Source: a phage
Direction: 5' to 3' (one strand)
Assembly: GCA_014435945.1 (NCBI GenBank)
Contig: GCA_014435945.1_4088.1
Length of the DNA stretch: 64,000 bases
A program made the translations under genes and the position numbers. Numbering within the stretch: position 1 is the first letter of the stretch; each line of letters starts with the position of its first letter. This document shows positions 10,811 to 40,513 of the stretch, piece after piece. A model generated the notes under the pieces. That model saw nothing but the letters and a program-made list of their open reading frames with translations. It was not told the DNA's origin and made no database searches.

Positions 10811-10813
10811 TTA

Positions 10814-13562: not shown

Positions 13563-13567
13563 ACACA

Positions 13568-13590
13568 AGCACCCAATGGGTGCTTTTTTA
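13568..13590 (+). terminator. intrinsic terminator
   Basis: AGCACCC-aat-GGGTGCT hairpin followed by TTTTTT; same stem family as the 10814 terminator. Confidence 0.7.
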
Positions 13591-19681: not shown

Positions 19682-19689
19682 AAATTTTA

Positions 19690-19717
19690 AGCTCGTCTAT
19701 TGACGGGCTTTTCTTTT
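19690..19717 (+). terminator. intrinsic terminator
   Basis: AGCTCGTC-tatt-GACGGGCT hairpin (one G-U pair) followed by T-rich run. Confidence 0.55.
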
Positions 19718-19728
19718 ATGTGTATAAT
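19700..19728 (+). promoter_or_regulatory. sigma70-type promoter
   Basis: TTGACG, 17-nt spacer, TATAAT; 24 nt upstream of the 19752 ORF. Confidence 0.6.
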
Positions 19729-24771: not shown

Positions 24772-24780
24772 TATGTTATG

Positions 24781-24815
24781 ATAGGGACTTGAGAAATCGA
24801 GTCCCTATTTTTTTT
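24781..24815 (+). terminator. intrinsic terminator
   Basis: ATAGGGACT-10 nt loop-AGTCCCTAT hairpin followed by T7; GGAG and ATG follow directly. Confidence 0.75.
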
Positions 24816-24826
24816 GGAGAAAATAA

Positions 24827-25183
24827 ATGAAATCTAAAATCTTTTTACCACAGTTAATGTGGCATCTGGCAGAGTTAGATGAAGATGATGAATATACTGA
24901 CTATGGTACATGGGATGACAGTACTGAATCATTCAATCCCGATGTTAAGTACAAAATCATTAGTAATGAAAGTAAAGGGCATAGACGATGGACAGAAGAA
25001 TTTGATCTAGTTTTTCTTGACATGAACACGAACAAATATTATCATTGTACGTATGAACGAGGTTTAACAGAAGATAGACCAGCAGAACCATTCAGAAATG
25101 AAACTGATGGTGTTAAGTGCTATGAAGTTTCTGTTACCAGAGAAGAAATTATCACTTATCGAACTTTGTGGAAATATTTGTAA
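24827..25183 (+). CDS. hypothetical protein
   Basis: ATG 7 nt after GGAG; 118 aa. Confidence 0.5.
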   Translation: MKSKIFLPQLMWHLAELDEDDEYTDYGTWDDSTESFNPDVKYKIISNESKGHRRWTEEFDLVFLDMNTNKYYHCTYERGLTEDRPAEPFRNETDGVKCYEVSVTREEIITYRTLWKYL

Positions 25184-25581
25184 TGCTAAAAGAATTAGAT
25201 TTTTCAAACTTAGAAATCATCAGTGCTGTTAAAAATATCTCTGACTTTGGAGATGAGAAGTCAGTACTGGTAACTGTTACATTCGTCAAAGAACAGGATA
25301 GCTATAGCCATTTAGATGGTATTGAAGAACTAATTCACAAGACTAATCTACAAAACGATGGTAAACTCATTAAGCTTCAGGCTTCCTATACGCAAAAATC
25401 GTCATTTTTTGTAGACCTAAATAATGTAGTCAAGGTGGTATACAATCACCCTGAACACAAATACAGGAACACGACAAGAAACGAGAATGATGCTATAGAC
25501 TCCAATATCAAAGAGGATGTCGAATTCATCAACACAATTTTTGACCGTTGTTCCAAGGATTTGAAAAAGGTATACATGTAA
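25183..25581 (+). CDS. hypothetical protein
   Basis: ATG overlapping upstream stop (TAATG); ORF track gave GTG at 25168. Confidence 0.45.
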   Translation: MLKELDFSNLEIISAVKNISDFGDEKSVLVTVTFVKEQDSYSHLDGIEELIHKTNLQNDGKLIKLQASYTQKSSFFVDLNNVVKVVYNHPEHKYRNTTRNENDAIDSNIKEDVEFINTIFDRCSKDLKKVYM

Positions 25582-25601
25582 CGGGACATAACACATCCTA
25601 G

Positions 25602-25610
25602 TGATATAAT
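25602..25610 (+). promoter_or_regulatory. extended -10 promoter element (TGATATAAT)
   Basis: TGnTATAAT; same 9-mer recurs at 36899, 40505, 52848 and 55908. Confidence 0.45.
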
Positions 25611-25887
25611 GTATATTGTAAAATGACAACGGACATTGAAAAATGGATAATGAGAACCTACTTCTCTTGAAAATGTAAAGGATAGATGAGCTTTACCGTT
25701 GTAGCGAACAGCAAAAGAAACCTGTTAGAGTACTGGCAATCAAACAAACACGAGATAAGACCACGAATCACGGCGACACGGCTGTATAAAGAACTCCAAT
25801 AAGCACACAGAGAGTTCCTAGATAGATGTATAAGGTTCGCACCTTACGAATTTGCTAAGGGAGTTCAAGGATTGTGGACGCGATTTT

Positions 25888-25916
25888 ACAAGAAAGTTGC
25901 GTCCAAAATTTGAGAA
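25888..25916 (+). repeat. direct repeat copy 1 (core CGTCCAAAATTTGAGAA)
   Basis: ACAAGAAAGTTGCGTCCAAAATTTGAGAA; 17-nt core identical to copy at 26053. Confidence 0.7.
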
Positions 25917-26040
25917 CAGGTACTACTTTGATCGAATAGAGTTTAGTACTGAGTGCTGTTGATGAAAAGACCAGCGACCGTTGCATATGACTGCGATAGA
26001 GAGAAACCGAGCAACCCGCTTTCGCTCTCTAAATTTTGGT

Positions 26041-26069
26041 ACAGGAAAGATCCGTCCAAAATTTGAGAA
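26041..26069 (+). repeat. direct repeat copy 2 (core CGTCCAAAATTTGAGAA)
   Basis: ACAGGAAAGATCCGTCCAAAATTTGAGAA; core identical to copy 1. Confidence 0.7.
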
Positions 26070-26108
26070 ATTCGCAATTCGATAATATCCGATGCCATCA
26101 TCGTCAAG

Positions 26109-26131
26109 AGAGACTTAATTGTCTCTTTTTT
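26109..26131 (+). terminator. intrinsic terminator (short stem)
   Basis: AGAGAC-ttaatt-GTCTCT followed by TTTTT. Confidence 0.45.
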
Positions 26132-26137
26132 ATTACC

Positions 26138-26161
26138 TTCATTCCCCTGCGGGGGGATGAA
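26138..26161 (+). other. stable GC-rich hairpin with UGCG loop
   Basis: TTCATTCCCC-tgcg-GGGGGATGAA (10 bp with G-U pairs); no following T-run. Confidence 0.5.
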
Positions 26162-26271
26162 ATAGTCCTCAACAAATCCCGTCAAGCTTTTAAAGTACAT
26201 TATCATTTTCAGAAGGAACTAGTTTACGAAGTAAACGTAGTGACTTCTTGAGTTACGAGAGAACGAAGTGA

Positions 26272-26700
26272 ATGAGTAACACAACGAAAATATCCAATAC
26301 ATCTGAATTAACACAAATGTTATTCAAAGAATATTTTGAGTATCAAATCAAAAGCGATCATAATTTGGTTCAGACCTATTTGAAGAGAATCAAAGATCCA
26401 TTAAGTTTAAACAAAGGAACTGAATTTTATAACAGTATTTTAGATTTTATTAATTTAGTTCATACAAACAGACCTATTGTAGTTTTCTTCTTTGATAAAT
26501 CAATTCCTGTAGAAGTTCCTGATAATGTATTTTTTGTTACAGAAACTGATTTAAGTAATCAAAGTACTGTAAGTAGATTAAGGAATTGCTTACTTATAAT
26601 TTGTGATTCTTCATTATATAACAATAGAGTACTATGGAATAGAAGTAAGAGAAATGCAGTTTCAGAAATGAATCCTGAAGTTACCTTTATTATTAACTAA
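26272..26700 (+). CDS. hypothetical protein
   Basis: 142-aa ORF, very AT-rich. Confidence 0.45.
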   Translation: MSNTTKISNTSELTQMLFKEYFEYQIKSDHNLVQTYLKRIKDPLSLNKGTEFYNSILDFINLVHTNRPIVVFFFDKSIPVEVPDNVFFVTETDLSNQSTVSRLRNCLLIICDSSLYNNRVLWNRSKRNAVSEMNPEVTFIIN

Positions 26701-26730
26701 ATACCATAGAATAACTCTAAGGAGAGATTT

Positions 26731-27171
26731 ATGGAAAATATTAATGATTTGCGACATGTAATGGACTTTATTGGAGATACTGAAGAAGATAGTTCTTATG
26801 ATGAAGTACTACTTACATTTATTGAGAATAGTTTATTTTTAAGTGCTGCTGCTCACAACTGGCATTTACAGAGCCATTTCTACACTAAGCACCTACAATT
26901 GGATGAACTATACAAAGAGTTACCTGAGTACGTTGATGCATTTGTAGAGGGTATTATGAACACTCGCGGTGCATTGCAGGTAGGTACTGGTAACAGTTAT
27001 CGTTTTACCCCTATCGAGGATTGTGTACCAATTCTTGAAGAATATGTTAGTCAATGTAAAGCCATTCATGCTATGCTTGAAGAGGCTGAAGACTATGGCA
27101 GTACTAACACGCTAGAAGACATTATGAGTTTTTGTGAAGGAATGCTTTACAAACTCAAAGTTTTACAATAA
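26731..27171 (+). CDS. hypothetical protein (possible Dps/ferritin-like fold)
   Basis: AHNWHLQ ... HLQLDELY ... EEAEDYGSTNTLEDIM loosely recalls Dps helices; weak. Confidence 0.35.
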   Translation: MENINDLRHVMDFIGDTEEDSSYDEVLLTFIENSLFLSAAAHNWHLQSHFYTKHLQLDELYKELPEYVDAFVEGIMNTRGALQVGTGNSYRFTPIEDCVPILEEYVSQCKAIHAMLEEAEDYGSTNTLEDIMSFCEGMLYKLKVLQ

Positions 27172-27178
27172 AATATAT

Positions 27179-27208
27179 GGAGAGTCATTGTGACTCTCCT
27201 TTTCTTTT
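27179..27208 (+). terminator. intrinsic terminator
   Basis: GGAGAGTCA-ttg-TGACTCTCC followed by TTTTCTTTT then GGAG. Confidence 0.75.
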
Positions 27209-27219
27209 GGAGAATATAT

Positions 27220-27573
27220 ATGAGTGATTACCGCGTAACATCTGGACTAATGGCCCGTCTTATTGAAGCAGTTCCTGAAGATGATTATGAAGCTATTTCA
27301 GATCGTCTTTTTGACGCAGATTCTAAACTCCATATTACATATGATGGTGCATTGATTTTCAGTACTGATATTGATATGTCTAGTTATGAATTTGAGATTT
27401 CTTTTGGTAACAAACTAACTACTGAAGAATTCGCTCAAAAATGTGAGCGTGAAGGGTTGTGTATTGATATTAGTTCAGTTCAGCCATATACATCACTGTG
27501 GTATGATGGTGCTGATAGTCCAATGTCTACTACATCTTTACAGGATTTTCTAAATGCAAATCAAAAAGATTAA
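27220..27573 (+). CDS. hypothetical protein
   Basis: ATG 7 nt after GGAG; the ORF-track GTG at 27190 lies inside the terminator hairpin. Confidence 0.5.
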   Translation: MSDYRVTSGLMARLIEAVPEDDYEAISDRLFDADSKLHITYDGALIFSTDIDMSSYEFEISFGNKLTTEEFAQKCEREGLCIDISSVQPYTSLWYDGADSPMSTTSLQDFLNANQKD

Positions 27574-27946
27574 ATTCCACCAGCATTGTTCTATACATGA
27601 ATGTGATGATTGTGGTATGAACATGAGTGACATTTATACAGTTTCCTGTAAAGGATTCAAATTCACTCACGGTGAACCTGCATATTGTTATGGCACAGAA
27701 GAAGGTGATATCGAAGTAGTACTGAAAGAATTGTTCCAGTACTTGCAAAGTGCAGGTCATGATGTTACAATGCCCACATATTACGAAGATGATTATGACT
27801 CACATGTAGAAGAAAATACATATTATAATCAATTCGTTCATGGTAATGGCTTTATCACATACCTTCATGAGAATGGTATTGAGGTAAAAACTAAGTACAC
27901 TAGTGATGATTACGAAAGTGATGACTCTATGGAGATTGAAGATTGA
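27554..27946 (+). CDS. hypothetical Cys-rich protein
   Basis: 130-aa ORF; CxxxxCxxC cluster near N-terminus; acidic C-terminus. Confidence 0.45.
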   Translation: MQIKKIKFHQHCSIHECDDCGMNMSDIYTVSCKGFKFTHGEPAYCYGTEEGDIEVVLKELFQYLQSAGHDVTMPTYYEDDYDSHVEENTYYNQFVHGNGFITYLHENGIEVKTKYTSDDYESDDSMEIED

Positions 27947-28530
27947 AAGCAAAAGACCTAGCAGCACTGTTGATGCAGAACCCTGAAATGGAAGTGTATC
28001 ATGAGCACATGCATATTGATGATATGTGTGAATCGTACTATTCACCAGAAAATGTGTCTGGGATTGAAATCACACCAAGTGGTGTATTCATCAGTACTGA
28101 ACGTATTGATTACAATTCCCAGCAAGAAATCAAAACTCCACATAATAAACCTCGCATTGGTGCTATTGACCTAGTATTTCATCAGGACCGTTTGGTGGAA
28201 TATGATGAAGACGATGGTACTACCCGAACTGATGTTGAGAATGTTGTTTTTCCTTTTTATAACGCCTATGATGACCCAACAACAGGTGAAGATTTCTTCC
28301 GTGAGTTATCAGAGGATGGTTATGTTTATGGTGAAAATGGAACTATTTTTGTACTGGACCCTAATTATGAGCCAGATCACAACACTTGGCAATTCTATAC
28401 ACCTCAAGATGTAATGGAAGTTAAAGTACTTACAGATCTTGACGATAATTGGAACCCAGTATATACTTCAATGACATTTGAAGAAGCAAAAAACCATTTC
28501 GTTTCTAAACTAAACATTACAAAAGAATAA
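27943..28530 (+). CDS. hypothetical protein
   Basis: TTG start 8 nt after GGAG (in-frame ATG 30 nt downstream possible); acidic. Confidence 0.45.
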   Translation: MKAKDLAALLMQNPEMEVYHEHMHIDDMCESYYSPENVSGIEITPSGVFISTERIDYNSQQEIKTPHNKPRIGAIDLVFHQDRLVEYDEDDGTTRTDVENVVFPFYNAYDDPTTGEDFFRELSEDGYVYGENGTIFVLDPNYEPDHNTWQFYTPQDVMEVKVLTDLDDNWNPVYTSMTFEEAKNHFVSKLNITKE

Positions 28531-28543
28531 GGATTTGAAATTT

Positions 28544-28825
28544 ATGAAAATTGTCGCAAGTGCATGGATGAAACTTACTGATGGTACTACTGCTTTTGAA
28601 GAGTATGGCTTTGTTGAAAGTGTAGAAGAATTAAAGCGTTTCAAAAGTGAAAATGATGATGATGTATTTGACATTGTATTCACCTATCACCATATTCCAA
28701 ATGATACAGATTATGAACATTATTATTACAATCAAGATCTGTTGGAAAATCTAGTGTGCGACAATCAACATGAAATTGATGAAAACACTGCTCTACTAAT
28801 GCTGAGTACCGTATCTCCGGTATAA
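28544..28825 (+). CDS. hypothetical protein
   Basis: ATG after AAGGA; acidic 93 aa. Confidence 0.45.
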   Translation: MKIVASAWMKLTDGTTAFEEYGFVESVEELKRFKSENDDDVFDIVFTYHHIPNDTDYEHYYYNQDLLENLVCDNQHEIDENTALLMLSTVSPV

Positions 28826-28833
28826 GGAGTTAT

Positions 28834-29313
28834 ATGTATAACCTTACAATTATCCGCGAACCAAATGAATATGACGGTAATACAACCTATGGTGAAGTTT
28901 TGGTATTTCAAAGTACTGAACAAAGTGGTATTGAACATAAATTAAAAGATTATTTACGTGATCATTTATATCTGCACCGTACTGATGCAAATTGTAATTA
29001 TGGTGATATAATGTTTATTGTAACGCACAATGGTGCGGTAATTGAACATATGAACATGACAAATGTAATGGATTTTTATAATTACACTGATACTTCTTTT
29101 CCATTGGATAACTATTTCAGTACTGTTTTTGATGCGTTACGTAAGAACGTTGCTAAAAATGATAGATTCTGTACTAATTTTAGATTATTAGAAACAAATA
29201 CAAGAAAGAATCTTTCTAAGAAGTATGATGAAGAACATAAGAAAAATCAGGAAATTCAACGTTTACATGAGTTAATGAAGAAATATCCCAACGAGGTCAA
29301 ATATGGCTCTTAG
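28834..29313 (+). CDS. hypothetical protein
   Basis: ATG after AAGGAG; 159 aa. Confidence 0.5.
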   Translation: MYNLTIIREPNEYDGNTTYGEVLVFQSTEQSGIEHKLKDYLRDHLYLHRTDANCNYGDIMFIVTHNGAVIEHMNMTNVMDFYNYTDTSFPLDNYFSTVFDALRKNVAKNDRFCTNFRLLETNTRKNLSKKYDEEHKKNQEIQRLHELMKKYPNEVKYGS

Positions 29314-29641
29314 AGGACAAACTCAATATAAGTGTATTGAAGAAATCAGAAAGAAAGATGGAACACTTTTTGACAGGAAATTAAAACAAGAATATAAAGA
29401 CCTAAGAGATGTTATCCGAAATGAAAGTTTCGGTGGGAAGCGTAGACAGAAGATTTATGAATTTCTGAAGAATGGTGTAGAAATTCAAGTCAATGGTCTT
29501 CATTGTGTACAAACCAAAAACGATCCAGATATTTTACGTCTTTTAAAAGAGGGTAAAATAGAAATGTTCAATATCCCAATTTCATCCTATGGTAATAGAT
29601 TAAAATGTAAGCACACGTACTTAAGGATTAAAAATGGGTAA
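29303..29641 (+). CDS. hypothetical protein
   Basis: 112-aa basic ORF overlapping neighbours. Confidence 0.45.
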   Translation: MALRGQTQYKCIEEIRKKDGTLFDRKLKQEYKDLRDVIRNESFGGKRRQKIYEFLKNGVEIQVNGLHCVQTKNDPDILRLLKEGKIEMFNIPISSYGNRLKCKHTYLRIKNG

Positions 29642-30218
29642 ATTAGTATATTACTATGGTAGTATGTCTAGTGGTAAAAGTACTCATCTTTTACAAAAAG
29701 CATATAACCATAAGAAAAATGGAATGAAGGTAATTTACTTAACCAGTGCACTTGATGATCGTTATGGAACAGGAAAGATTACTTCAAGAATTGGCATCGA
29801 AGCTGTGGCTGAAGTAATTCCAAAAAATGACATTAGTGTTCTTCTTAAAGTTAAAGAAACACTCAAAAATGACGTTGACATTAACAGTATCTATGTTGAT
29901 GAATGTCAATTTTTAAACAGAGAACAGATTGACCATTTAGCTGATATAGCAGATAATTATGGTGTTGATGTTTCCTGTTATGGAATCCGAACAGATTTTG
30001 AATCCAATCTATTTGAAGGTTCACAAAGACTGTTCGAAATAGCTGATGACATACATGAACTTAAGAACGTGTGTGAGAATCAGAAGTGTGGCAAAGAAGC
30101 CACTATGAATGCCCGTATAGTTGAAAGTACTGATAAAGTCTTTATTGGTGGTGATGAATCATACAAGAGTCTATGCAGAACTTGCTATATGGATTATATG
30201 AGGAATAAAAATGGTTGA
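29634..30218 (+). CDS. tdk: thymidine kinase
   Basis: P-loop YYGSMSSGKST, DECQFL, C-terminal zinc motif CxxxxC ... CxxC. Confidence 0.9.
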   Translation: MGKLVYYYGSMSSGKSTHLLQKAYNHKKNGMKVIYLTSALDDRYGTGKITSRIGIEAVAEVIPKNDISVLLKVKETLKNDVDINSIYVDECQFLNREQIDHLADIADNYGVDVSCYGIRTDFESNLFEGSQRLFEIADDIHELKNVCENQKCGKEATMNARIVESTDKVFIGGDESYKSLCRTCYMDYMRNKNG

Positions 30219-30435
30219 TTCATTTATGAAACGCGTTTTGAATGATGTACTATCTGGATTTAAAAAAGCGACTAGTCTTATTTTTAGTTCAGTAGTGATG
30301 GTTATTACCGTAATGGCATTTGCACTTGTACTGCATTTTGTACCATTCTGGTTAGTATTCATTGTACTCATTGTTCTTCTAGGTACGCATGTTTATTATG
30401 TTTACTGTGAAGCTTTGGATGATGATAACGTTTAA
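30211..30435 (+). CDS. small membrane protein (hypothetical)
   Basis: Two hydrophobic helices. Confidence 0.4.
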   Translation: MVDSFMKRVLNDVLSGFKKATSLIFSSVVMVITVMAFALVLHFVPFWLVFIVLIVLLGTHVYYVYCEALDDDNV

Positions 30436-30443
30436 AAGTGTTT

Positions 30444-30467
30444 GACCTCACTATGTGGGGTCTTTTT
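30444..30467 (+). terminator. intrinsic terminator
   Basis: GACCTCAC-tat-GTGGGGTC (one G-U) followed by TTTTT. Confidence 0.55.
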
Positions 30468-30478
30468 AAGGTATCTAT

Positions 30479-30922
30479 ATGCATAACGAAACTGAAGTCT
30501 TCAAACGTTTCATTGATATTTGTTTACACACGAATTTGGTATATTTGGGTCCAGGAGCAAACTTCAGAACTTTATCTTCAATTTTAGGATACACTGAACC
30601 ATCATGCTTATATTGCGATGGGAACATGATCCATCTAACTGATGGTGATTTTAATGTTCAGTACATTTCTCAATGTGATATGTATGTATTCAATACACCA
30701 GAATATAATATTATTATTGAAGAACGTACTAAAGATAATTACCCAACCCAATATGTAAGTTGGGATAGAACAGATTGCGTATATGCCACTGGCCCAGTAC
30801 AGAAACCTATGAACTATCCTACTATTCATTTGAATGTTATCCATGATGAATTGAAAGATTACTGTAACAGTATTTCAGATTCGGAAACAAAATACTTTCC
30901 TATTATATTTTTTAAGGTTTGA
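30479..30922 (+). CDS. hypothetical protein
   Basis: 147-aa ORF. Confidence 0.5.
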   Translation: MHNETEVFKRFIDICLHTNLVYLGPGANFRTLSSILGYTEPSCLYCDGNMIHLTDGDFNVQYISQCDMYVFNTPEYNIIIEERTKDNYPTQYVSWDRTDCVYATGPVQKPMNYPTIHLNVIHDELKDYCNSISDSETKYFPIIFFKV

Positions 30923-31314
30923 TTATGAGATGGCGTAAACGACATGTAACAAGATTTAATAAAATAATCAAAAAGTATTTCTCGCATAAGTTAGATCCAA
31001 TCATACTTCAACTAAGAAGTAGTATGTTTGATAGACGTTTCCCACAGTGTTTAGAATCGTACAGTCGTAAACGTTACAAGAATGAATACCTGGTATATCG
31101 TTATGATTTATCAGAATTCTTTTTGAATACTCGTGTATCTGTACCCATCAGACTGTACTCAAGGGTAAAACGAAGTAGGGTCCAAGATATCACTTATGGT
31201 TATCTTATGCTTGAGATTAATGAACTCAATGAAAAAACAGGTAGAAATTTCAGTACTTTATGTCTGGAAAACAATGATATCATAAAAAGAATTATAGAAG
31301 ATTTGGGCAAGTAG
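30919..31314 (+). CDS. hypothetical basic protein
   Basis: 131 aa, Arg/Lys-rich. Confidence 0.45.
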   Translation: MIMRWRKRHVTRFNKIIKKYFSHKLDPIILQLRSSMFDRRFPQCLESYSRKRYKNEYLVYRYDLSEFFLNTRVSVPIRLYSRVKRSRVQDITYGYLMLEINELNEKTGRNFSTLCLENNDIIKRIIEDLGK

Positions 31315-31343
31315 GATTTTTTATGCTATAATTGGAGATGAGT

Positions 31344-31688
31344 ATGAAATACATCGACAAAGGTACAGTTGAAACACAGTACTGGAATATTCATATTGCT
31401 GGTGATATCCAAACAGCAAGAGAGTACACACGAAAGTTTGCATTCAAGCTTGGATTTTGTGTACAATTGATTCCGTGTGAATACATCTACACGGGTGGTC
31501 TTGAAAGTGGAATGTGTGCTCGTATTATTCAGTACCCACGCTTCCCAAAAGAAGAAATATATCTCAACCGAGATGTATTAAACTATGCTAAGGGTTTAGC
31601 TGAAGAGTTGTGTCAAAAGAGTTTTACTATTGAACGAAATAATGATACAATCTATTATGAAAGTACCGACCCTTTACACAAGAAATGA
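31344..31688 (+). CDS. hypothetical protein
   Basis: ATG 6 nt after GGAG (ORF track gave TTG at 31332). Confidence 0.45.
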   Translation: MKYIDKGTVETQYWNIHIAGDIQTAREYTRKFAFKLGFCVQLIPCEYIYTGGLESGMCARIIQYPRFPKEEIYLNRDVLNYAKGLAEELCQKSFTIERNNDTIYYESTDPLHKK

Positions 31689-31699
31689 AAGGAAAATAT

Positions 31700-31831
31700 A
31701 TGAATGGACTAAAAAAGTTTGGTAAAGATTTTCTAAAGTGCATCCGATACACATATGATGCAAATCCAGAAATGACTGCCATCGTGGGTGTGTTTATTAC
31801 ACTCGTTGTATTAAGCTTTATTGTGGTGTAA
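31700..31831 (+). CDS. small membrane protein (hypothetical)
   Basis: 43-aa ORF below track cutoff; ATG after AAAGGAAAA; C-terminal TM helix. Confidence 0.3.
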   Translation: MNGLKKFGKDFLKCIRYTYDANPEMTAIVGVFITLVVLSFIVV

Positions 31832-31834
31832 CAT

Positions 31835-32038
31835 ATGATTGAAATTAATGCTGATATATATTGTAGTGCATCACCCAATTACTTCATTTATGCACTAAGT
31901 ACATTTGGTGAAACTGAAGGTGAAACTTTTGTTTTAGTAGATAATACTACATGGTACAAAACAAGTAATAAAATTCCGAAAGATGTTTTGGAAACTTATG
32001 TTCGTATTGAAAATAAAAACATATATGTAAATTTATAG
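31835..32038 (+). CDS. hypothetical protein
   Basis: 67-aa ORF. Confidence 0.35.
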   Translation: MIEINADIYCSASPNYFIYALSTFGETEGETFVLVDNTTWYKTSNKIPKDVLETYVRIENKNIYVNL

Positions 32039-32045
32039 GTAAAAT

Positions 32046-32456
32046 ATGATTGAAATGGAAGGAACTCTGGTGTATGATCCAGATCGTGGCACTATGAAAA
32101 AGAAGAAGGACTTCTGGTTAGTACTGCAACTTCCATTACAGTTGGTTCGATACTACCAGTACTTCATCAGAACTGACTTACATATTGATATCAAAGACCC
32201 ACAATGGGGAGCACATGTCAGTATCGTTCGTGGTGAAGTGCCACCAAATCCAGAGTACTGGAAAAAGTACGATGGTATGAAAGTTAAGATTAAGTTCGAA
32301 CCTTTCATCGAAGAAGTAAAAGACAATAAGAAACCTGGGTCATTCTTTATCATAGAGTTTGAAGATGATTTCATTGCACAAATTCGTGATGAACTTGGTT
32401 TAGCATCTAAATATTTCAAATATCACATCACCATTGGTAGAACATACTACGATTAA
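32046..32456 (+). CDS. 2H-phosphoesterase-superfamily protein (LigT-like)
   Basis: Two H-x-[ST]-x motifs about 90 residues apart: GAHVSIVRGE and KYHITIGR. Confidence 0.5.
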   Translation: MIEMEGTLVYDPDRGTMKKKKDFWLVLQLPLQLVRYYQYFIRTDLHIDIKDPQWGAHVSIVRGEVPPNPEYWKKYDGMKVKIKFEPFIEEVKDNKKPGSFFIIEFEDDFIAQIRDELGLASKYFKYHITIGRTYYD

Positions 32457-32623
32457 TGTGGTTATTTGGTAAATAGGTCTTGATATAACTAAAAAGTATG
32501 CTATACTACTTAAATGTTCCAAAGAACAACTGAGTACTGTAGAAAGTCCAATGAGGCTTTTGCAAATGGCCTCTTTGCCCTCTTTGTGATTGCTCATTGT
32601 TAACAACCAACAAAGGAGGCGTT

Positions 32624-33550
32624 TTGAAAAAAGCGAAAAAAGCACTGAAAACTAAAATTGCCGTAGGCGTATTAGTTTCATCAGCCCTATTCGCTGCTAT
32701 TGGATTTTATGGTTTTTCTCAAAGTGATCATGTACCATCATTAGACGAAAGTCAGGTGCATAATTTAAAACCACAGTTTACTCAAATTCAAAAGCAGGAA
32801 CTACCAAAGGTATCAGTACCAAAAGCAGTTCCAAGCAGCGAGAAACATTATACGGTTCAACCTGGTGATAGTTATTATTCTATTGCACAGAAATTTAAAC
32901 CTAAAAATGTACAGATTGAAGATTATGTCATTTTGTTGAAGAACATCAACTTAAATGCAACTCTTCATACTTCTCAGGGTATCTTTATCCCAACAAAAGA
33001 GGATTTGAAGCACGTATTGTTACCAGATGTGACTGTACTGTTTGATTATAAAGATCCAGAAATTGTCAATCACATCAAAGAAGCTGAAGGTTCTATTGAA
33101 TTTCAGTCCAAGAACAAACGACGTTTACTTGGTGGGAAAGTTGGAGTTCCATATCGAAATTCTAAATTTTATCCGTATCGTGATATAAAAGGTAACTTCA
33201 CTATTGGGTACGGACATTATCTTGGAAAGAAAGAATCAGATGCAAGTAAGTATCGTAATGGTATTACGAAGTCACAAGCACATAAACTTTTATTGTCTGA
33301 CATGGAACGAACTAATAATGATTTAGTTTTATTATTGAAGAAAAGAAATGCAACAAACCTTACGGCTGAACAACAACGAATTTTATTTGAGATGGCATTT
33401 ACATTAGGAGTTGATAAGTTAAATACTTTCAATAAATTATGGAAAAGCGTTGATAATCAAAATAATAACAAGTTCAAAAAAGAAATTAAGAATTCTCTAT
33501 GGTATCGTCAAGTAGGAAACCGTGCAGAATTGTTAGTTAGTAATTTGTAA
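32624..33550 (+). CDS. endolysin: N-terminal membrane anchor + LysM + T4-type (GH24) lysozyme domain
   Basis: TTG 5 nt after AAAGGAGG; TM segment; LysM YTVQPGDSYYSIAQKF; lysozyme motifs EAEGS, FTIGYGH, WYRQVGNRAELL. Confidence 0.75.
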   Translation: MKKAKKALKTKIAVGVLVSSALFAAIGFYGFSQSDHVPSLDESQVHNLKPQFTQIQKQELPKVSVPKAVPSSEKHYTVQPGDSYYSIAQKFKPKNVQIEDYVILLKNINLNATLHTSQGIFIPTKEDLKHVLLPDVTVLFDYKDPEIVNHIKEAEGSIEFQSKNKRRLLGGKVGVPYRNSKFYPYRDIKGNFTIGYGHYLGKKESDASKYRNGITKSQAHKLLLSDMERTNNDLVLLLKKRNATNLTAEQQRILFEMAFTLGVDKLNTFNKLWKSVDNQNNNKFKKEIKNSLWYRQVGNRAELLVSNL

Positions 33551-33558
33551 TTTACAAT

Positions 33559-33589
33559 AAAGGATGATATGTATCATCCTTTATTTTTA
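33559..33589 (+). terminator. intrinsic terminator
   Basis: AAAGGATGAT-atgt-ATCATCCTTT followed by ATTTTT. Confidence 0.7.
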
Positions 33590-33599
33590 AGGTAAAAAT

Positions 33600-34232
33600 A
33601 TGATATATAATGTTGGTATAAATGATGTACCAGGTGATTCTAAATCGGATAGTGATGGTTATTATATATATGTGAAATGGAAAAGTATGATTAAACGATG
33701 CTACTCAGTTGAATATCAAAAAATACATCATTCATATATTGGAACAACTGTATGTAATGAATGGCTTACATATTCAAATTTTAAAGATTGGTATCTAAAT
33801 AATTACATAGACGGGTATGTTTTAGATAAAGACTTGATATCGGGTGATTTACAAGTATACTCACCAGTGACATGTTCATTTGTACCACAAGAATTAAATT
33901 GTTCTATTCTTGAAAGTAATAGTGCTAAAACAAAACTACCATTGGGTGTGTCATATCAACAGAAAACTAAAAATATGATAAATGAACGTTCGAAACCATA
34001 TGATTCATATATAAAAATGTATGGTAAGTTGTATCGTCTTGGTAGTTATGAATGTCCTGAACTTGCACATAAAGAATGGCAAATCGCCAAGAAAAAATAT
34101 CTCGAAGAACTCATTGACAGATATAAAAATTCTGTTAAAATGGAAGTCATAGAAGGTATTCAGAAACGAATTGATATATTACATAATGATATAGTCAATA
34201 ACGGTGTTACAATCACAATCAATAAGATATAA
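33600..34232 (+). CDS. putative homing-endonuclease-associated DNA-binding protein
   Basis: WKSMIKRCYS ... YIGTTVCNEWLTYSNFKDW pattern recalled from phage proteins annotated HNH/AP2; tentative. Confidence 0.35.
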   Translation: MIYNVGINDVPGDSKSDSDGYYIYVKWKSMIKRCYSVEYQKIHHSYIGTTVCNEWLTYSNFKDWYLNNYIDGYVLDKDLISGDLQVYSPVTCSFVPQELNCSILESNSAKTKLPLGVSYQQKTKNMINERSKPYDSYIKMYGKLYRLGSYECPELAHKEWQIAKKKYLEELIDRYKNSVKMEVIEGIQKRIDILHNDIVNNGVTITINKI

Positions 34233-34244
34233 GGTAGGTAAATT

Positions 34245-34577
34245 ATGCTAGATTTAGTTATCCAAGGTAATGTTGATATTACTCCAGCAATCAATTACGC
34301 GATTCATGCAGAAGCAAATGCACTAACGAAGTTTAGTGATTCTTCAGTACTTTATATCGGTGTTCATGTGAAGAAAGAGCATAAGTCTCAATACTCTGTG
34401 ACTCTAACATCAGGTAGTAAATCAGTTACTGCCGATGCAGCAGATTTATACAAGGCGATTGCTGATTCATTTGAAAAAATGGAAACTGTATTCAGTAAAG
34501 ACAAAAGCATTAAATTGCACCGCCGAAACCATCCAGAACATCCAGTTCAAGAAGACTTGACTGACAACGAAGAGTAA
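34245..34577 (+). CDS. hypothetical protein
   Basis: 110-aa ORF. Confidence 0.5.
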   Translation: MLDLVIQGNVDITPAINYAIHAEANALTKFSDSSVLYIGVHVKKEHKSQYSVTLTSGSKSVTADAADLYKAIADSFEKMETVFSKDKSIKLHRRNHPEHPVQEDLTDNEE

Positions 34578-34588
34578 TATATAATAAA

Positions 34589-34620
34589 GGGACAGAGATA
34601 ATTCTGTCCCTTTTCTTTTT
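34589..34620 (+). terminator. intrinsic terminator
   Basis: GGGACAGA-gataat-TCTGTCCC followed by TTTTCTTTTT then GGAG. Confidence 0.75.
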
Positions 34621-34630
34621 GGAGTACATT

Positions 34631-34810
34631 ATGAATGCAGTACTGATATTTTTAATGTGTGTGGTATTTGGTGCTTTTGGTCTATTCGTAATTTTAGATA
34701 CTGAACCTAGTACTGAAGTAGGTACAACCATTACACTTAAACCTGGTGTTAAAATTAATGATACCTATTGCTACAATCCAAACATAAACCGTTATGAGAT
34801 TTGTTTATGA
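34631..34810 (+). CDS. small membrane protein (hypothetical)
   Basis: ATG 7 nt after GGAG; N-terminal TM helix. Confidence 0.4.
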   Translation: MNAVLIFLMCVVFGAFGLFVILDTEPSTEVGTTITLKPGVKINDTYCYNPNINRYEICL

Positions 34811-35214
34811 AAACATTCAATATTGTTCATATAATTGAACCGATTGCAGAACATATTAAAAACATAAGTAAGAACGATTCAGGTTTTTTCTTCAATTTAG
34901 ACAAACTTCATCGCTATACCAATGTATCTAGTTTTAATCGTGCTAAGAGACTTTATATCCGTATACACAACCTATGGTACAGTGACGATACGTTGATGAT
35001 AGATATTACTGTTGATGAAGACATAACATTAAGATACATTGACGATTTTAAATCAGATGATATTCGTTCTGGCTCATTACCAATTGATGCTTCATATGAA
35101 GAATATATGCAATATCAGTTCATTGATGACACATTTGGATTTGACTTTGATCTATATAATAGTATAATGAACGTATACCATATATACGAAAGGAATTTGA
35201 ATGGACATTCGTAA
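34801..35214 (+). CDS. hypothetical protein, tandem paralog 1
   Basis: C-terminus YMQYQFIDDTFGFDFDLYNSIMNVYHIYERNL resembles the next ORF. Confidence 0.45.
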   Translation: MFMKTFNIVHIIEPIAEHIKNISKNDSGFFFNLDKLHRYTNVSSFNRAKRLYIRIHNLWYSDDTLMIDITVDEDITLRYIDDFKSDDIRSGSLPIDASYEEYMQYQFIDDTFGFDFDLYNSIMNVYHIYERNLNGHS

Positions 35215-35623
35215 AATACCAAATTTCCACAGTACATTAATGTACTTTTCTGAACAAGAAATCAGTACTGAAAGACGTGGTTTAGTTACATATAATCAAC
35301 ATCGTGTTATGTACACTAATAATTTTCAGGGTACTGTACGAATAAAATTTCGTAATGCGTTAGAAGAGAATGATGAATTGTTAATTTTACTAAGAAAAAG
35401 TAAGATTGAATTGACATACGCAACTCACCATATTGAAAGTGAGTTGATGTGGCACACCCTATCAAAAAAAGAAGGTTCATTGCCAGTTGTTGATAATGGT
35501 CCTGAAACACTTGATCAGTACATGTTCATTGATGATACATTTAGTATTGACTATCCATCATTTCAGTGTATACTAGATATACATGCAAAATATTACGACC
35601 GTCTACGTGATAGATTAATTTAA
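35201..35623 (+). CDS. hypothetical protein, tandem paralog 2
   Basis: C-terminus LDQYMFIDDTFSIDYPSFQCILDIHAKYYDRL. Confidence 0.45.
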   Translation: MDIRKIPNFHSTLMYFSEQEISTERRGLVTYNQHRVMYTNNFQGTVRIKFRNALEENDELLILLRKSKIELTYATHHIESELMWHTLSKKEGSLPVVDNGPETLDQYMFIDDTFSIDYPSFQCILDIHAKYYDRLRDRLI

Positions 35624-35758
35624 TTGGAGGCATTGTGATTACAGTATTAGAAGAAGATTGGGGTGTTTCCGAGCAAGGAACAGATGAATATGAATATCCA
35701 GAATATCAGCCAAAAGGCTTCTGGGAACGTCTACGTGATTGGTTGATGGGGGAATGAT

Positions 35759-36874
35759 ATGAAAAAGTATTTGGTTGGTGGCTACGTTCGTGACCGTTTA
35801 ATGGGCATCCGTGCAAAAGACAAAGATTATGTTATTGTTGGTGCTACCGAATCCGATATTAAGTACTTGCAAAGTATTGGATACAAGCAAGTAGGTAAGG
35901 ATTTCCCTGTATATCTAAGTCCAGAAGGTAATGAACACGCATTAGCCCGTACTGAGCGTAAAACTGGTACTGGATATGGTGGCTTCGAAGTGAATACAAA
36001 AGGTGTGACACTAGAACAAGATCTATATCGTCGTGATCTCACAATCAATAGTATTGCATATGATCCAGTACTCCAGATTCACATCGACCCTTATGGCGGG
36101 AAAGCTGATATCAAGAACAAAGTACTTCGTCATGTATCAGAACACTTTAAAGAAGATCCATTGCGTGTTCTACGTTTGGCCCGTTTCGCTACGCGTTACT
36201 CCGACTTTACAATCCATGATGATACTATGACAATGTGTAAAGATATGGTTAGTACTGGTGAACTAGACCATCTAGTCCCAGAACGTGTATTTGTTGAATT
36301 CGAAAAAGCACTTTCTGAAGAAAACCCTTCCAAGTTTATCAAAACTCTGGTACAATTTGGTTATTACGAAAAGGCATTTACTACAGTTCCAGTTACCAAG
36401 AAACGTCTGGAATTAATTGATGCTATCGCTGCAAATTGTACAGAAGAATATAAACCATATTTCTTATGGACAGTACTTCTTGAAAATGAAGAAGTAAATA
36501 ATGATTCAGTACTTAACGGTTCCATTAAGGTTCCAGTTAAGTACGTGAAGTTTAGTAATTACATCAAGCGTTTCCGTGAAGATATTAAAACCTTCCGTAA
36601 GAAGACCCCAGTTGAAATGGGGCAAATCTTACTGGATATGAATATCAAAAACAATGGTGGTGAAGATTTCCTTTACAAAGTACTGGAAAACTTCATTTTG
36701 AACAAAGAAATTGATTCTGAACTTGAAGATTTGATTATTAAAGTTTATGATCGTTATACTGATGTTGAATTACCTGATATTCAGCAGTTAGTGAAAGATG
36801 GTGAACTCCAAACATCGGAGATTCGTGATTTTGTTGCTGAATTGCGTATTGAAGCAATCAAGCAAATGTTCTAA
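35759..36874 (+). CDS. cca: tRNA nucleotidyltransferase (CCA-adding enzyme)
   Basis: Head-domain motifs GGYVRDRLMG, DxD, RRDLTINSIAYD, ERKTGTGYGGF. Confidence 0.85.
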   Translation: MKKYLVGGYVRDRLMGIRAKDKDYVIVGATESDIKYLQSIGYKQVGKDFPVYLSPEGNEHALARTERKTGTGYGGFEVNTKGVTLEQDLYRRDLTINSIAYDPVLQIHIDPYGGKADIKNKVLRHVSEHFKEDPLRVLRLARFATRYSDFTIHDDTMTMCKDMVSTGELDHLVPERVFVEFEKALSEENPSKFIKTLVQFGYYEKAFTTVPVTKKRLELIDAIAANCTEEYKPYFLWTVLLENEEVNNDSVLNGSIKVPVKYVKFSNYIKRFREDIKTFRKKTPVEMGQILLDMNIKNNGGEDFLYKVLENFILNKEIDSELEDLIIKVYDRYTDVELPDIQQLVKDGELQTSEIRDFVAELRIEAIKQMF

Positions 36875-36898
36875 AAGCTGGGACAAGTTAACATCTTC

Positions 36899-36907
36899 TG
36901 ATATAAT
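36899..36907 (+). promoter_or_regulatory. extended -10 promoter element (TGATATAAT)
   Basis: TGATATAAT 43 nt upstream of the Nudix ATG. Confidence 0.4.
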
Positions 36908-36949
36908 TACTAGTATCTGAACATCACTTGATGATAAAGAGATAAGATT

Positions 36950-37394
36950 ATGCGTTATAGCTGTGGTATAATATTTTATCGTGATGGTCAGATACTTATC
37001 GGGCATACAACACGGACAGAATCACTGGGACTTACCTAAAGGTAAAACTGAAGGTACAGAAACATTTAAAGAGGCTGCTGTACGTGAATGCTACGAAGAG
37101 ACAGGATATGAAATCGATGAAGATGATCTTCTGTTTCTTGGTGATGTATCGTATAGAAAGGGGAAACGTTTAGTTTTATTTTTCTATACAGCCAAAGATA
37201 AGCCTATACCAGAAGAGTTGGTGTGTAAAAGTACTTACACAAACAGATATGGTAGAAGTCACCCAGAATTGGATAAGTTCATGTACATTGATGTACTAGA
37301 TTGTCAAAAGTATTTGACTGAACGAATGTGTAACAGTATAATAAAGGCTGTTACAATGTTTCAACGAAATAAAGGGAAAAGAAATGAAAGTTAA
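36950..37394 (+). pseudogene. Nudix hydrolase with apparent +1 frameshift near codon 25
   Basis: Frame A (ATG 36950) encodes Nudix-like N-terminus GIIFYRDGQILIGHTTR then stops at 37037; frame B (+1) encodes LPKGKTEGTETFKEAAVRECYEETGY (perfect Nudix box) to 37394. Confidence 0.55.
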
Positions 37395-37632
37395 AATTTA
37401 TGGTCGCACTACTGGTTGTAAATTCTGCGACACTGCTAAAGCAGTATGTGAAAATAACAAATTTGATATGGAGTTTATCGATATTGTTACCGCTGGTATT
37501 GATGGTGCTAAACTATCTGAACTATGTGGTGAGCCAGTACGACAGGTTCCACAAATTTTCGTAAACGATGTTTACGTTCCAGGTGGCTGTACTGGTTTCG
37601 TTGAAGGTCTTAAAGAAGGTCGCTGGAATTAA
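37384..37632 (+). CDS. glutaredoxin/thioredoxin-like protein (NrdC-like)
   Basis: 82 aa; active-site CKFC near N-terminus; size and pattern as T4 NrdC/NrdH-type redoxins. Confidence 0.7.
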   Translation: MKVKIYGRTTGCKFCDTAKAVCENNKFDMEFIDIVTAGIDGAKLSELCGEPVRQVPQIFVNDVYVPGGCTGFVEGLKEGRWN

Positions 37633-37874
37633 TGAATATTGATAAAGTATCATCTCGTGCAAAACATTTAGCTGACACATTGGGTGTTGAATTTAAAATG
37701 CCTGATATGGAAGCTGCAAAAGTTAAAGCACAACGTAAAATTCACAAAATGAAAGAATACACTACTAAGAAAGAACAGTACGATAAAGCGGTTGCTTATA
37801 TTATTGAAGCTTTCAGTAAAGATGATATTTTGGCATTCATCGCTTCAGTAGAGGTTTCGAGCAACCCTAAATAA
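37632..37874 (+). CDS. hypothetical protein
   Basis: 80-aa ORF overlapping upstream stop. Confidence 0.4.
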   Translation: MNIDKVSSRAKHLADTLGVEFKMPDMEAAKVKAQRKIHKMKEYTTKKEQYDKAVAYIIEAFSKDDILAFIASVEVSSNPK

Positions 37875-37919
37875 TAATGAAGAACACAAGTTCTTCGTAA
37901 CAATTTGGGAGATACTATT

Positions 37920-38162
37920 ATGCTCAGTTTTCGTGAACAATTAGCAAAAGGCCAATTCGCTGCTAAAGCTCAAACATCCATTCCTAAAAAGTCTGCTTTC
38001 TTAGGGACGATTACAGAAGATGGTTATTGTGATTATAATGCACCAGAAGATTCATGGTACATTACGAAAGACACAAAACGTGGTAATAGACTTCACAAAA
38101 GTACCATTGCTCGCAAACAACGAAAAGAATTGAAAAAAATTCGATTCGGTGAAGAAGAATAA
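37920..38162 (+). CDS. hypothetical basic protein
   Basis: ATG after GGGAGA (ORF track gave TTG at 37905). Confidence 0.4.
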   Translation: MLSFREQLAKGQFAAKAQTSIPKKSAFLGTITEDGYCDYNAPEDSWYITKDTKRGNRLHKSTIARKQRKELKKIRFGEEE

Positions 38163-38173
38163 AATATAAATTA

Positions 38174-38203
38174 AGGACTCTGATTACAGAGTCCTTTCTT
38201 TTC
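38174..38203 (+). terminator. intrinsic terminator
   Basis: AGGACTCTG-atta-CAGAGTCCT followed by TTCTTTTC then GGAG. Confidence 0.75.
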
Positions 38204-38213
38204 GGAGAATATA

Positions 38214-38690
38214 ATGATACATGAACACCTAGGTAATTTGTTTGAATTGTTCAACTCTGTTACTGATGATCAAACCGCGTTGCATATAATCGCTCATGGT
38301 TGTAATGCACAGGGTAAGATGGGTTCGGGTTTTGCAAAAGAACTAAGAAATCGTTACCCGATGGCATATGATGATTATAAAGCATATGAAAAGGAAATGG
38401 GATTTCTAAGAACAGGACAAATTTCATATTCTTCTATAAGTGATGATTTGCTTATCGCAAACTGCATTACCCAACAGTACTATGGTAATGACGGTTCTAA
38501 GTATGTAAGTTATGATGCAATCGATGATGTTTTCAAACAACTAAATTACTTATGTAACGTTGAACGCACTGTTCATGTACACTTCCCGAAAATTGGAGCC
38601 GATTTAGGCGGTGGTAACTGGAACGTTATCAAAGAAATCATTGACCACAGACTGGTTAATGCAGAAAAACACTTATACATTCTAAAATAA
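38214..38690 (+). CDS. macro-domain protein (ADP-ribose binding/processing)
   Basis: ALHIIAHGCNAQGKMGSGFA resembles the macro-domain motif [IV]xHxxNCQGxMGAGIA. Confidence 0.55.
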   Translation: MIHEHLGNLFELFNSVTDDQTALHIIAHGCNAQGKMGSGFAKELRNRYPMAYDDYKAYEKEMGFLRTGQISYSSISDDLLIANCITQQYYGNDGSKYVSYDAIDDVFKQLNYLCNVERTVHVHFPKIGADLGGGNWNVIKEIIDHRLVNAEKHLYILK

Positions 38691-40461: not shown

Positions 40462-40471
40462 AACAAAAAAA

Positions 40472-40497
40472 AGACTCCTATATGGGGTCTTTTTTTA
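40472..40497 (+). terminator. intrinsic terminator
   Basis: AGACTCC-tatat-GGGGTCT (one G-U) followed by T7; resembles the 30444 terminator. Confidence 0.6.
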
Positions 40498-40504
40498 TAT
40501 GTTG

Positions 40505-40513
40505 TGATATAAT
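40505..40513 (+). promoter_or_regulatory. extended -10 promoter element (TGATATAAT)
   Basis: TGATATAAT immediately after the terminator, 28 nt upstream of the 40541 ORF. Confidence 0.4.

Follow-up and report, generated by a model that had tools for sequence, protein, structure and literature searches.

The four hairpin-bearing junctions J1 to J4 are probably Rho-independent terminators that abut the Shine-Dalgarno (SD) site of the next gene and end short transcription units within a region of small genes. They are positional orthologs that have been vertically inherited, not dispersed repeats. The window, i.e., the whole 64,000-nt stretch of DNA that was analysed, comes from an Asteriusvirus (a PBECO4/121Q/RaK2-like jumbo phage of E. 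coli), and the main lesson from it is that compact transcription-unit boundaries can be expected to produce such a suggestive pattern of repeats. The four junctions are organized as follows.

J1, 24754..24829, + strand: sigma70-like promoter site TTGAAT-17-TGtTATGAT (24754-24782), hairpin (24780-24809), T-run (24808-24815, tail TTTTTT), GGAG (24816-24819) and ATG (24827), with an HNH endonuclease gene (24160-24771) upstream and a 118-aa ORF downstream.
J2, 27146..27222, + strand: hairpin (27179-27199, GGAGAGTCA/TGACTCTCC), T-run (tail TTTTCTTTT), GGAG (27209-27212) and ATG (27220); putative 3' terminator of a Dps-like gene (26731-27171).
J3, 34557..34633, + strand: promoter-like site TTGACT-17-TATAAT (34557-34585), hairpin (34586-34613), T-run (tail TCTTTTT), GGAG (34621-34624) and ATG (34631), downstream of an HPF/RaiA-like gene.
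J4, 38173..38216, + strand: hairpin (38173-38196), T-run (tail TCTTTTC), GGAG (38204-38207) and ATG (38214) of a macro-domain gene.

The single layout proposed originally for these junctions could be confirmed as stop codon, A/T-rich stretch, stable hairpin, T-run, GGAG and ATG, except that the GGAG-to-ATG spacer measures 6-7 nt and not 7-8 nt. The stems contain 9-13 pairs, five of them G-C, begin 7-10 nt past the stop codon in sense orientation at all four junctions and are directly followed on the 3' side by the T/U-run. Fold energies range from -14.3 to -19.8 kcal/mol (z -3.3 to -5.2), and in a terminator scan of the + strand from 20 to 40 kb the four hairpins were the four best hits, beyond chance expectation. 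Terminators are already annotated at the homologs of J1-J3 in the related record UE-S1, and also in the related record G17, where the matches concerned include J1 and J4. As in intrinsic terminators of enterobacteria and their phages, a GC-clamped hairpin with an immediate U-tract lies in sense orientation just past the stop codon, an upstream A-tract allows bidirectional use, and the structure is conserved with covariation. Unlike in the usual case, the U-tract is commonly TTTTCTTTT, and about one fifth of the U-tracts abut the next SD so closely that no promoter would fit between the two; the compactness of the genome brings the U-tract right up against GGAG and the start codon of the next gene. 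No Rfam family was found in the whole window at gathering thresholds, or within 25500-26300 at a relaxed threshold, and no tRNAs were found.

All four stems are kept in nine Asteriusvirus genomes while the loops vary; those of J1-J3 are almost fully conserved, with most substitutions falling in loops and one unpaired position in the J2 stem of BF17. Outside the genus, RaK2 has an identical J2 stem, and CBB has a different perfect stem in its place. The J4 stem has been kept across five genera through compensatory changes, with both partners altered at four pair positions and no pair broken in any of ten genomes, the pairs being tallied by anchoring on the stem base because the cross-genus MAFFT alignment left the 5' arm out of register. 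These hairpins could stop or attenuate transcription from upstream, and read-through would express the genes behind them. Since we found no transcript end or start mapping for Asteriusvirus in the literature, we infer termination, read-through and the overlapping promoters alike.

It is highly improbable that the hairpin/T-run/GGAG arrangement serves translational control instead, the T-run or the 3' arm pairing with the SD whenever the terminator hairpin is absent. The minimum-energy folds of J2, J3, and J4 do show a small second helix (UUUUC/GGAGA), and the 3' arm of J2 ends in CTCC, but these helices have only 3-5 pairs including G-U, are missing from the centroid structures of J2 and J3 and are absent at J1. 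Moreover, the CTTTTCTTTT tail also follows terminators that have no SD behind them, and the SD of J4 changes freely between genera (GGAG, AGGA, GAGG, GGA) while the T-run stays constant. Sequestration of the SD by T-run or 3' arm was rejected as weak and inconsistent.

The resemblance among the terminator junctions did not exceed chance. The 19-mer pair is located at 27204 (J2) and 38198 (J4), and against junctions put together at random from terminator tails of this phage, GGAG, spacers taken from actual GGAG sites and ATG, this best pair reached p=0.032, with p=0.18 for at least one of the six junction pairs attaining its score. When all gene starts were compared, the four junction 25-mers ranked 1st to 17th of 3570 pairs, a clustering that can be accounted for only once the presence of T-run plus GGAG is conditioned on. 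What J1-J4 share is limited to about 20 low-complexity nt (T-run and SD) and reflects a common grammar, consisting of an A-tract with a GG(G)AC-type clamp, the TTTTCTTTT tail that is usual in this phage, the SD core found most often and a spacer of A/T, so that they resemble each other because they share a function. GGAG-type SDs precede about 32 of 93 genes, and GGAG is not significantly enriched past terminators (5/8 proximal cases vs a 34% background; binomial p about 0.1, calculated by hand). CTTTTCTTTT, which occurs five times against 0.46 expected, always after a hairpin and in three of the five cases without GGAG next to it, is a general terminator tail of this phage. Two further elements illustrate the range of junctions.

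Fifth junction, 8288..8331, + strand: the same layout, with a weaker hairpin, TTTTTAATT, GGAG, 6 nt and ATG.
Terminator of another class, 19689..19728, + strand: CTTTTCTTTT tail, then a TGTGTATAAT promoter, with no direct SD.

Genome-wide, 69 sense terminators were counted in about 347 kb, of which about 15 are SD-proximal with assorted SDs, GGAG accounting for five of these.

Promoter elements are a second component of some of these boundaries. As had been proposed, TGATATAAT is a genuine -10 element of promoters; its copies, however, number 11 (10 of them on the + strand; 1.8 expected) and not five. Promoter-like sites scoring at least 9 accompany 4/8 SD-proximal terminators, compared with 3.6% of random positions. 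Among J1-J4, credible sites exist at J1 and J3 only: the J1 TTGAAT-17 site with its extended -10 is retained in both allele types, and the J3 site, matching at 11 of 12 positions, abuts the hairpin. J2 has a weak site (TTTACA-17-TAAAAT) whose -35 lies inside coding sequence and which is not conserved outside the genus, as checked in RaK2 and CBB, and a promoter was looked for at J4 and not found. Another case is an HNH cassette shared by the window and JNE01 only.

HNH cassette, 33541..34232, + strand: TTGTTA-17-TACAAT, hairpin (33558-33581), T-run, AAGG and ATG.
HNH homing endonuclease gene, 33600-34232, + strand: 210 aa, phrog_953 HNH (3.6e-68).

At J1, J3, and this cassette, the -10 box ends 0-5 nt before the hairpin or just inside it, and the sigma70-like promoter may also express the downstream gene; transcripts starting there would begin within the 5' arm and so could not form the terminator. 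In PBECO4 and ph0011, a consensus TTGACA-17-TGTATAAT stands one nt ahead of a hairpin/T-run/AAGG/ATG module.

The original prediction that such junctions bound exchanged cassettes applies to some of them. Directly past the J2 GGAG, an extra 205-aa ORF (phrog_18200) is present in PBECO4, BF17, SD-15, and many others; in RaK2, K64-1, CBB, and Erwinia and Xanthomonas phages, homology ends at the J2 ATG and a different gene comes next; and the identity of BF17 to the window rises abruptly at J2, from about 83% to 98%. J3 is a replacement hotspot, where gene replacement starts right past the T-run and at least four structural alleles lie downstream, the variable ORF being phrog_36582. Support is weak at J1, where gene content differs in CRJP21 only, through an inserted paralog (phrog_6343), and lacking at J4, whose genes on both sides are syntenic in five genera, with no differing flanking genes seen between relatives. 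The terminator travels together with its upstream gene. As boundaries of units with free intergenic space, the junctions probably tolerate gene gain, loss and replacement, and J2 and J3 are accordingly sharp points at which synteny and mosaic identity break. Of ten intergenic indels, six are located at terminator junctions, with P=0.006 under a uniform null and P about 0.045 or weaker under a null weighted by intergenic length.

A related arrangement is known from promoter-early stem-loop (PeSL) cassettes of the T4-like phages RB49/phi1, PST, and nt-1 (Arbiol et al. 2010, PMC2839356; Comeau et al. 2014, PMC4122927). PeSLs are a family of multi-copy elements whose conservation spans about 100 bp, with promoters of consensus type and GGGG/CCCC stems, and in one subclass the stem-loop comes just after the -10 box and crossovers have been seen within it (PMC2839356; PMC4122927). 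The order of a stop codon in A/T-rich DNA, sigma70-like promoter, stem-loop, SD and ATG is similar here; all of J1-J4 have the stem-loop with SD and ATG at its 3' end, and the J1 and J3 promoters ending at the hairpin resemble PeSL elements, fitting the subclass mentioned. Like PeSLs, the junctions lie among small ORFans and are tied to insertion, deletion and replacement between close relatives, whose flanking genes differ at J1, J2, and J3 but not at J4. Two terminators elsewhere in the window bear on the comparison.

Terminator, 40466..40513, + strand: followed by a TGTGATATAAT promoter.
Chimeric terminator, 60417..60440, - strand: crossover inside the hairpin/loop.

PBECO4 has two similar terminators on either side of an additional 455-aa gene, and the element at 60417-60440 is a chimera of these two whose crossover point falls in the hairpin, as has been described for PeSLs. 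At the 40466 terminator of ph0011 and UE-S1, an inserted 664-aa homing endonuclease separates the hairpin from the stop codon, and an imperfect 18-nt repeat of the 5' arm and loop flanks this insert. Both cases suggest, at the sequence level, that crossover between terminators occurs away from J1-J4. Furthermore, the early region of the related phage JNE01 contains a true repeated family, with at least 16 copies of a 70-90 nt cassette made of a promoter, a GGGG..CCCC stem-loop and an SD.

These observations raise the possibility that J1-J4 are themselves PeSL-like mobile regulatory cassettes, i.e., portable patches of homology whose copy-to-copy recombination inserts, deletes or swaps genes, possibly through mini-circles. 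We regard this as unlikely, despite the indels or replacements at J1, J2, and J3 and the enrichment under the uniform null. J1-J4 are single-copy orthologs fixed in place across genera, their homology ending at about 20 low-complexity nt in place of a multi-copy unit of 50-100 bp; the indels at J1-J4 are in no case bounded by junction copies on both sides, and no chimeric elements were found there. In addition, J2 and J4 lack a convincing promoter, the length-weighted null weakens the indel enrichment, and the early-region cassette of JNE01, a much closer PeSL analogue than J1-J4, is absent from the window. The earlier suggestion that repeated modules provide short homology for recombination was not supported at J1-J4, which are vertically inherited orthologs with chance-level likeness and without a two-ended indel.

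Homing endonucleases offer another explanation, in which free-standing enzymes cut near intergenic sites and co-convert the flanks, the hairpins being incidental or controlling expression of the endonuclease genes. An HNH gene is located directly upstream of J1, the 664-aa insert sits at the 40466 terminator, and the 33558-34232 HNH cassette, which carries its own hairpin, is present in JNE01 and missing from 8/8 relatives; identity in its flanks falls to about 70% and 83%, with the right-hand tract reaching J3, a pattern that is consistent with co-conversion. As Edgell and co-workers are said to have described in 2010, free-standing homing endonucleases are inserted in T4-like phages, and the HNH genes here are likewise present or absent at intergenic sites with divergent flanks. 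Nevertheless, homing accounts for 33600 and 40466 only and not for the inserts at J1, J2, and J3, where the J1 paralog, the J2 insert and the J3 ORF are not endonucleases, and J2 and J4 are conserved where no endonuclease is nearby. This explanation is quite improbable for the junctions as a whole. A single homing-endonuclease family behind the inserts was also rejected, since the roughly 205-aa ORFs at 24160, 33600, and in the J2 insert are mutually unrelated.

Morons, as known from the work of Juhala and Hendrix, are autonomous gene units that carry their own promoter and terminator and are inserted between phage genes. Gene gain and loss at unit boundaries is similar here, and the 33558-34232 cassette likewise brings a promoter-like site and a hairpin. 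Unlike in morons, where the terminator follows the inserted gene, the hairpin here lies ahead of the variable gene and goes with the conserved gene upstream. We tentatively propose, while considering it rather doubtful, that terminators in RaK2-like jumbo phages could serve as fixed anchors at which genes are exchanged, the conserved terminator staying with its upstream gene and the first downstream gene being repeatedly replaced through crossovers at the T-run/SD or within the hairpin. Such anchors would represent an orthologous version of PeSL shuffling that involves single copies, beside the true PeSL-like repeat family of the early region. If the junctions were preferred crossover points, this would help to explain the turnover of small accessory genes in 350-kb phages with the expression of their neighbours undisturbed, and engineering of these phages could make use of them as natural, insulated sites of insertion.

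Likeness between terminators does extend to their stems elsewhere in the window, as had been noticed originally, in the following elements.

Terminator, 10813..10833, + strand: AAAGCACC/GGTGCTTT, upstream of the nrdD-nrdG block.
Terminator, 13567..13585, + strand: AAGCACCC/GGGTGCTT, downstream of nrdG.
SD-proximal terminator, 30444..30481, + strand: AAGG SD.

Those at 10813 and 13567 form one stem family (AAGCACC...GGTGCTT), and those at 30444 and 40466 another, having GGGGTCTTTTT in common. Terminator stem families exceed an arm-shuffle null genome-wide, so that some copying between terminators could have taken place, although part of the excess stems from the positional A-tract/G-run bias that the shuffle destroys. 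In vB_Ec-M-J, a 1247-nt insert with a reverse-strand 396-aa ORF directly follows the 13567..13585 terminator. A third AGCACC hairpin is found at 39625.

The 15 kb around J1 to J4, four junctions of the terminator-T-run-GGAG-ATG type, share 97-98% identity with Escherichia phages WPEC3, vB_Ec-M-J and others, and 84-88% with PBECO4 and 121Q of the genus Asteriusvirus, a group of jumbo myoviruses of ~350-385 kb related to RaK2. Nearly all window genes up to 58.4 kb lie on the + strand. The window is a mosaic that no single record matches throughout, with vB_EcoM_JNE01 (JNE01) the closest record for one segment; ~347 kb assembled from JNE01 and the window served for genome-wide counts, and relatives were compared over 19-44 kb (eight) or over most of the window (three). 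All four junctions are present in the window as originally described:

24754..24829, + strand, junction J1
27146..27222, + strand, junction J2
34557..34633, + strand, junction J3
38173..38216, + strand, junction J4

They share the order stop codon, 7-10 A/T-rich nt, hairpin of 9-13 pairs, T-run, (T/C)GGAG, 6-7 nt and ATG, fold at -14.3 to -19.8 kcal/mol, and have the sequence-level features of intrinsic terminators. They are also the four strongest + strand terminator-like sites within 20-40 kb, where 14 such sites occur vs 7.4 +/- 2.9 in shuffles. A fifth junction of this layout lies at 8288, and terminators adjoin AAGG or AGG Shine-Dalgarno (SD) sites at 6324, 30444 and 33558.

When the 25-mers upstream of 85 gene starts were compared pairwise (3570 pairs), J2/J4 ranked first and J2/J3 and J1/J2 shared rank two, a clustering that arises because three parts are common: terminator tail, GGAG-type core and A/T-rich spacer. 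The tail CTTTTCTTTT belongs to this phage's terminators in general (5 copies vs 0.46 expected), being found only behind hairpins, on either strand, and in three of the five copies without GGAG next to it; tails of this type occur on ~20 of the 69 sense terminators genome-wide. About one third of genes use GGAG-type SD cores, and the spacers between GGAG and ATG are A/T-rich. Against random junctions that combined tails and real spacers of this phage with GGAG and ATG, the J2/J4 score gave p=0.032 per pair and p=0.18 for one of six pairs, so the similarity does not exceed that expected of terminators and SD sites in general. The apparent repetition of J1-J4 is the usual make-up of compact boundaries between terminator and RBS.

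The stem pairs named in the original prediction were found, together with a third AGCACC...GGTGCT hairpin at 39625. Genome-wide, 119 terminator-like matches occur in the ~347 kb (shuffled sequence, ~4 per 147 kb); 69 follow an ORF in sense orientation, and ~15 of these adjoin SD sites of assorted types. Stem pairs sharing at least 7 nt number 26-34 vs 4 +/- 2 under arm shuffling; the stem families are real, and part of the excess is positional A-tract/G-run bias. A tandem array of paralogs contains stem GCCAGTAC eight times; AAAAGGAGAGC occurs three times at convergent gene pairs, and AAAGGGATTGAC twice. The array, outside the window, comprises ~nine minus-strand paralogs of ~390 aa (JNE01 pieces L013 41697-50000 and L014 1-2965), with the same GCCAGTAC/GTACTGGC terminator after seven or eight genes, most then followed by TAAATATAGTATAAT, a clear example of gene duplication that carried the junction modules with it. 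Two similar terminators, AAAGCACC.. and AAGCACCC.., bracket the anaerobic ribonucleotide reductase block at 10813-13585 (nrdD, a 108-aa ORF, nrdG); phage ph0011 carries 356 nt extra behind nrdD, and vB_Ec-M-J a 1247-nt insert behind the second terminator. The hairpin at 39625-39669 has a long loop (AGCACCTC-(24 nt)-GAGGTGCT-TTTTT-ATG), the head-tail adaptor gene at 39670 has its SD (GAGG) within the 3' arm, and TATAAACA in the loop is similar to the late-promoter motif; the hairpin might serve to couple translation with late transcription.

J1-J4 are all positional orthologs in nine Asteriusvirus genomes, with substitutions mainly in loops. The UE-S1 record annotates terminators at homologs of J1, J2, 30444 and J3, and the G17 record lists terminators under matches that include J1 and J4. 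J4 is kept, with the same neighbouring gene on each side, in RaK2, Munch, GAP32, CBB, fHe-Yen9-04, EJP2 and pEa_SNUABM_12; its stem has double, compensatory changes at four pair positions and zero broken pairs, the T-run is kept, and the SD is GGAG, AGGA, GAGG or GGA. J2, after a Dps-like gene, keeps its stem in RaK2; in CBB another perfect stem takes its place. Such positional orthology and kept stems across genera indicate that J1-J4 are probably old, selected terminators of the upstream gene rather than recently spread modules.

The suggestion that the junctions may bound exchanged cassettes finds support at J2 and J3 and none at J4, which showed no variation among the relatives compared. 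At J2, PBECO4, BF17, SD-15 and many others, including genomes ~98% identical in the flanks, have an extra 205-aa ORF that acquires the hairpin and GGAG; BF17 shifts from ~83% to 98% identity to the window across the junction, and in distant genera homology stops at the ATG, followed by unrelated genes. The ORF after J2 in 121Q, gp519 (L027 1290-1922), has a beginning similar to that of the PBECO4 insert ORF, and its last residues are the C terminus of the window 27220 gene (..NENQKD), which suggests a deletion fusing the two. At J3, replacement begins directly behind the T-run (60 nt in the window vs 475-983 nt elsewhere; at least four structural alleles), and J1 has an inserted paralog in CRJP21. 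Other indel events fall at terminators (13567, 40466, 60417) or away from them (7346, 12785, 22991, tk deletion). Terminator-bearing junctions, 19 of 95, received 6 of 10 intergenic events (P=0.006 with junctions equally likely). Weighting by intergenic length gave P ~0.045, optimistic given miscalled gene starts; much of the association can therefore be put down to selection for sites where insertions are tolerated. The segment 57630-58967, holding the end of a thymidylate synthase gene and a bidirectional terminator, is 1336 nt in the window vs 2376 nt in ph0011, where the ORF has 546 aa vs 309 aa and might represent an insertion in td.

The further idea that junction homology supplies recombination substrate is not borne out at these four junctions, as the far ends of the J1-J4 events all lack a junction copy. 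Elsewhere, the minus-strand terminator 60417-60440 combines two similar terminators found in PBECO4 on either side of an extra 455-aa gene (gp003), with the 5' arm from one and the 3' arm and tail from the other; arms of different origin point to a crossover inside the hairpin, of which this chimera would be the signature. A homing endonuclease insert at 40466 has an 18-nt imperfect repeat on its flanks. Both match reports on the promoter-early stem-loop cassettes (PeSLs) of T4-like phages, though they are occasional here.

ORF 33600-34232 encodes an HNH endonuclease found only in the window and JNE01 and absent from eight relatives. Identity to otherwise 98-99% relatives falls to ~70% at 33100-33580 and ~83% at 34280-34780 and 35180-35550; this mosaic patch (33100-35550) surrounds the gene, its right-hand divergent tract extends to J3, and it is consistent with co-conversion during homing. 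Judging from these divergent flanks, endonuclease activity probably contributes to variation near J3.

J1-J4 resemble PeSLs in layout and association with indels, but differ in that they do not form a conserved multi-copy motif. A considerably closer analogue is a JNE01 early-region cassette outside the window, intergenic, 70-90 nt long and in at least 16 copies (L014 9000-28000; JNE01 311-330 kb), ordered as UP-like element AAAAAGTAC, TTGCAA/TTGACA, 17 nt, TATAAT, GTTTTACATC, stem-loop GGGGAGAA..TTCTCCCC (GGGG..CCCC, without T-run), SD and ATG. Just upstream of the array, 8-nt periodic repeats (ACGGCTAA / GGATGGCT types) occupy L014 8130-8256.

Sigma70-like sites whose -10 ends anywhere from 5 nt ahead of the hairpin to 2 nt into it occur at J1 (TTGAAT-17-TGtTATGAT; relatives TGATATTAT), J2 (TTTACA-17-TAAAAT), J3 (TTGACT-17-TATAAT) and the HNH cassette at 33558 (TTGTTA-17-TACAAT); such scores occur at just 3.6% of random positions. 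At the junction equivalent to 22991/23002 in the window, PBECO4 and ph0011 have a consensus TTGACA-17-TGTATAAT that stops one nt short of a hairpin/T-run/AAGG/ATG module. Transcription would start ~7 nt past the -10, within the 5' arm, so that the transcript would escape the terminator. As RaK2 and CBB do not conserve the J2 site and no promoter-like site was found at J4, the genes downstream of both probably depend on read-through. The terminators at 19689, 40466 and 45313 have a promoter behind them instead of an adjoining SD.

The recurrence of the TGATATAAT -10 element is real, with 11 copies in the window (1.8 expected) rather than the five first counted. Preceded by a (G)GACA box at a distance of 15 nt, it forms the -10 of a major class of phage promoters (54 copies vs 13.5 expected in ~347 kb; 46 on the + strand, which bears most genes), with sites at 5323, 25602, 36899, 55908 and others in the window; this class is probably the counterpart of the divergent RpoD-like promoters reported in CBB and GAP32. 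The ORF-free gap 25581-26272 holds one copy of a dispersed non-coding element of 400-600 nt, with a GGGACA-N15-TGATATAAT promoter ahead and a hairpin and T-run at its end; it gave no Rfam match. The element is 69-74% identical to three other ORF-poor JNE01 sites (L009 46949-47472, L010 8168-8651, L013 15030-15264), the latter two directly preceded by a promoter-like site of TGATATAAT or GGGACA type, and might be either a decayed gene or a family of phage non-coding RNAs.
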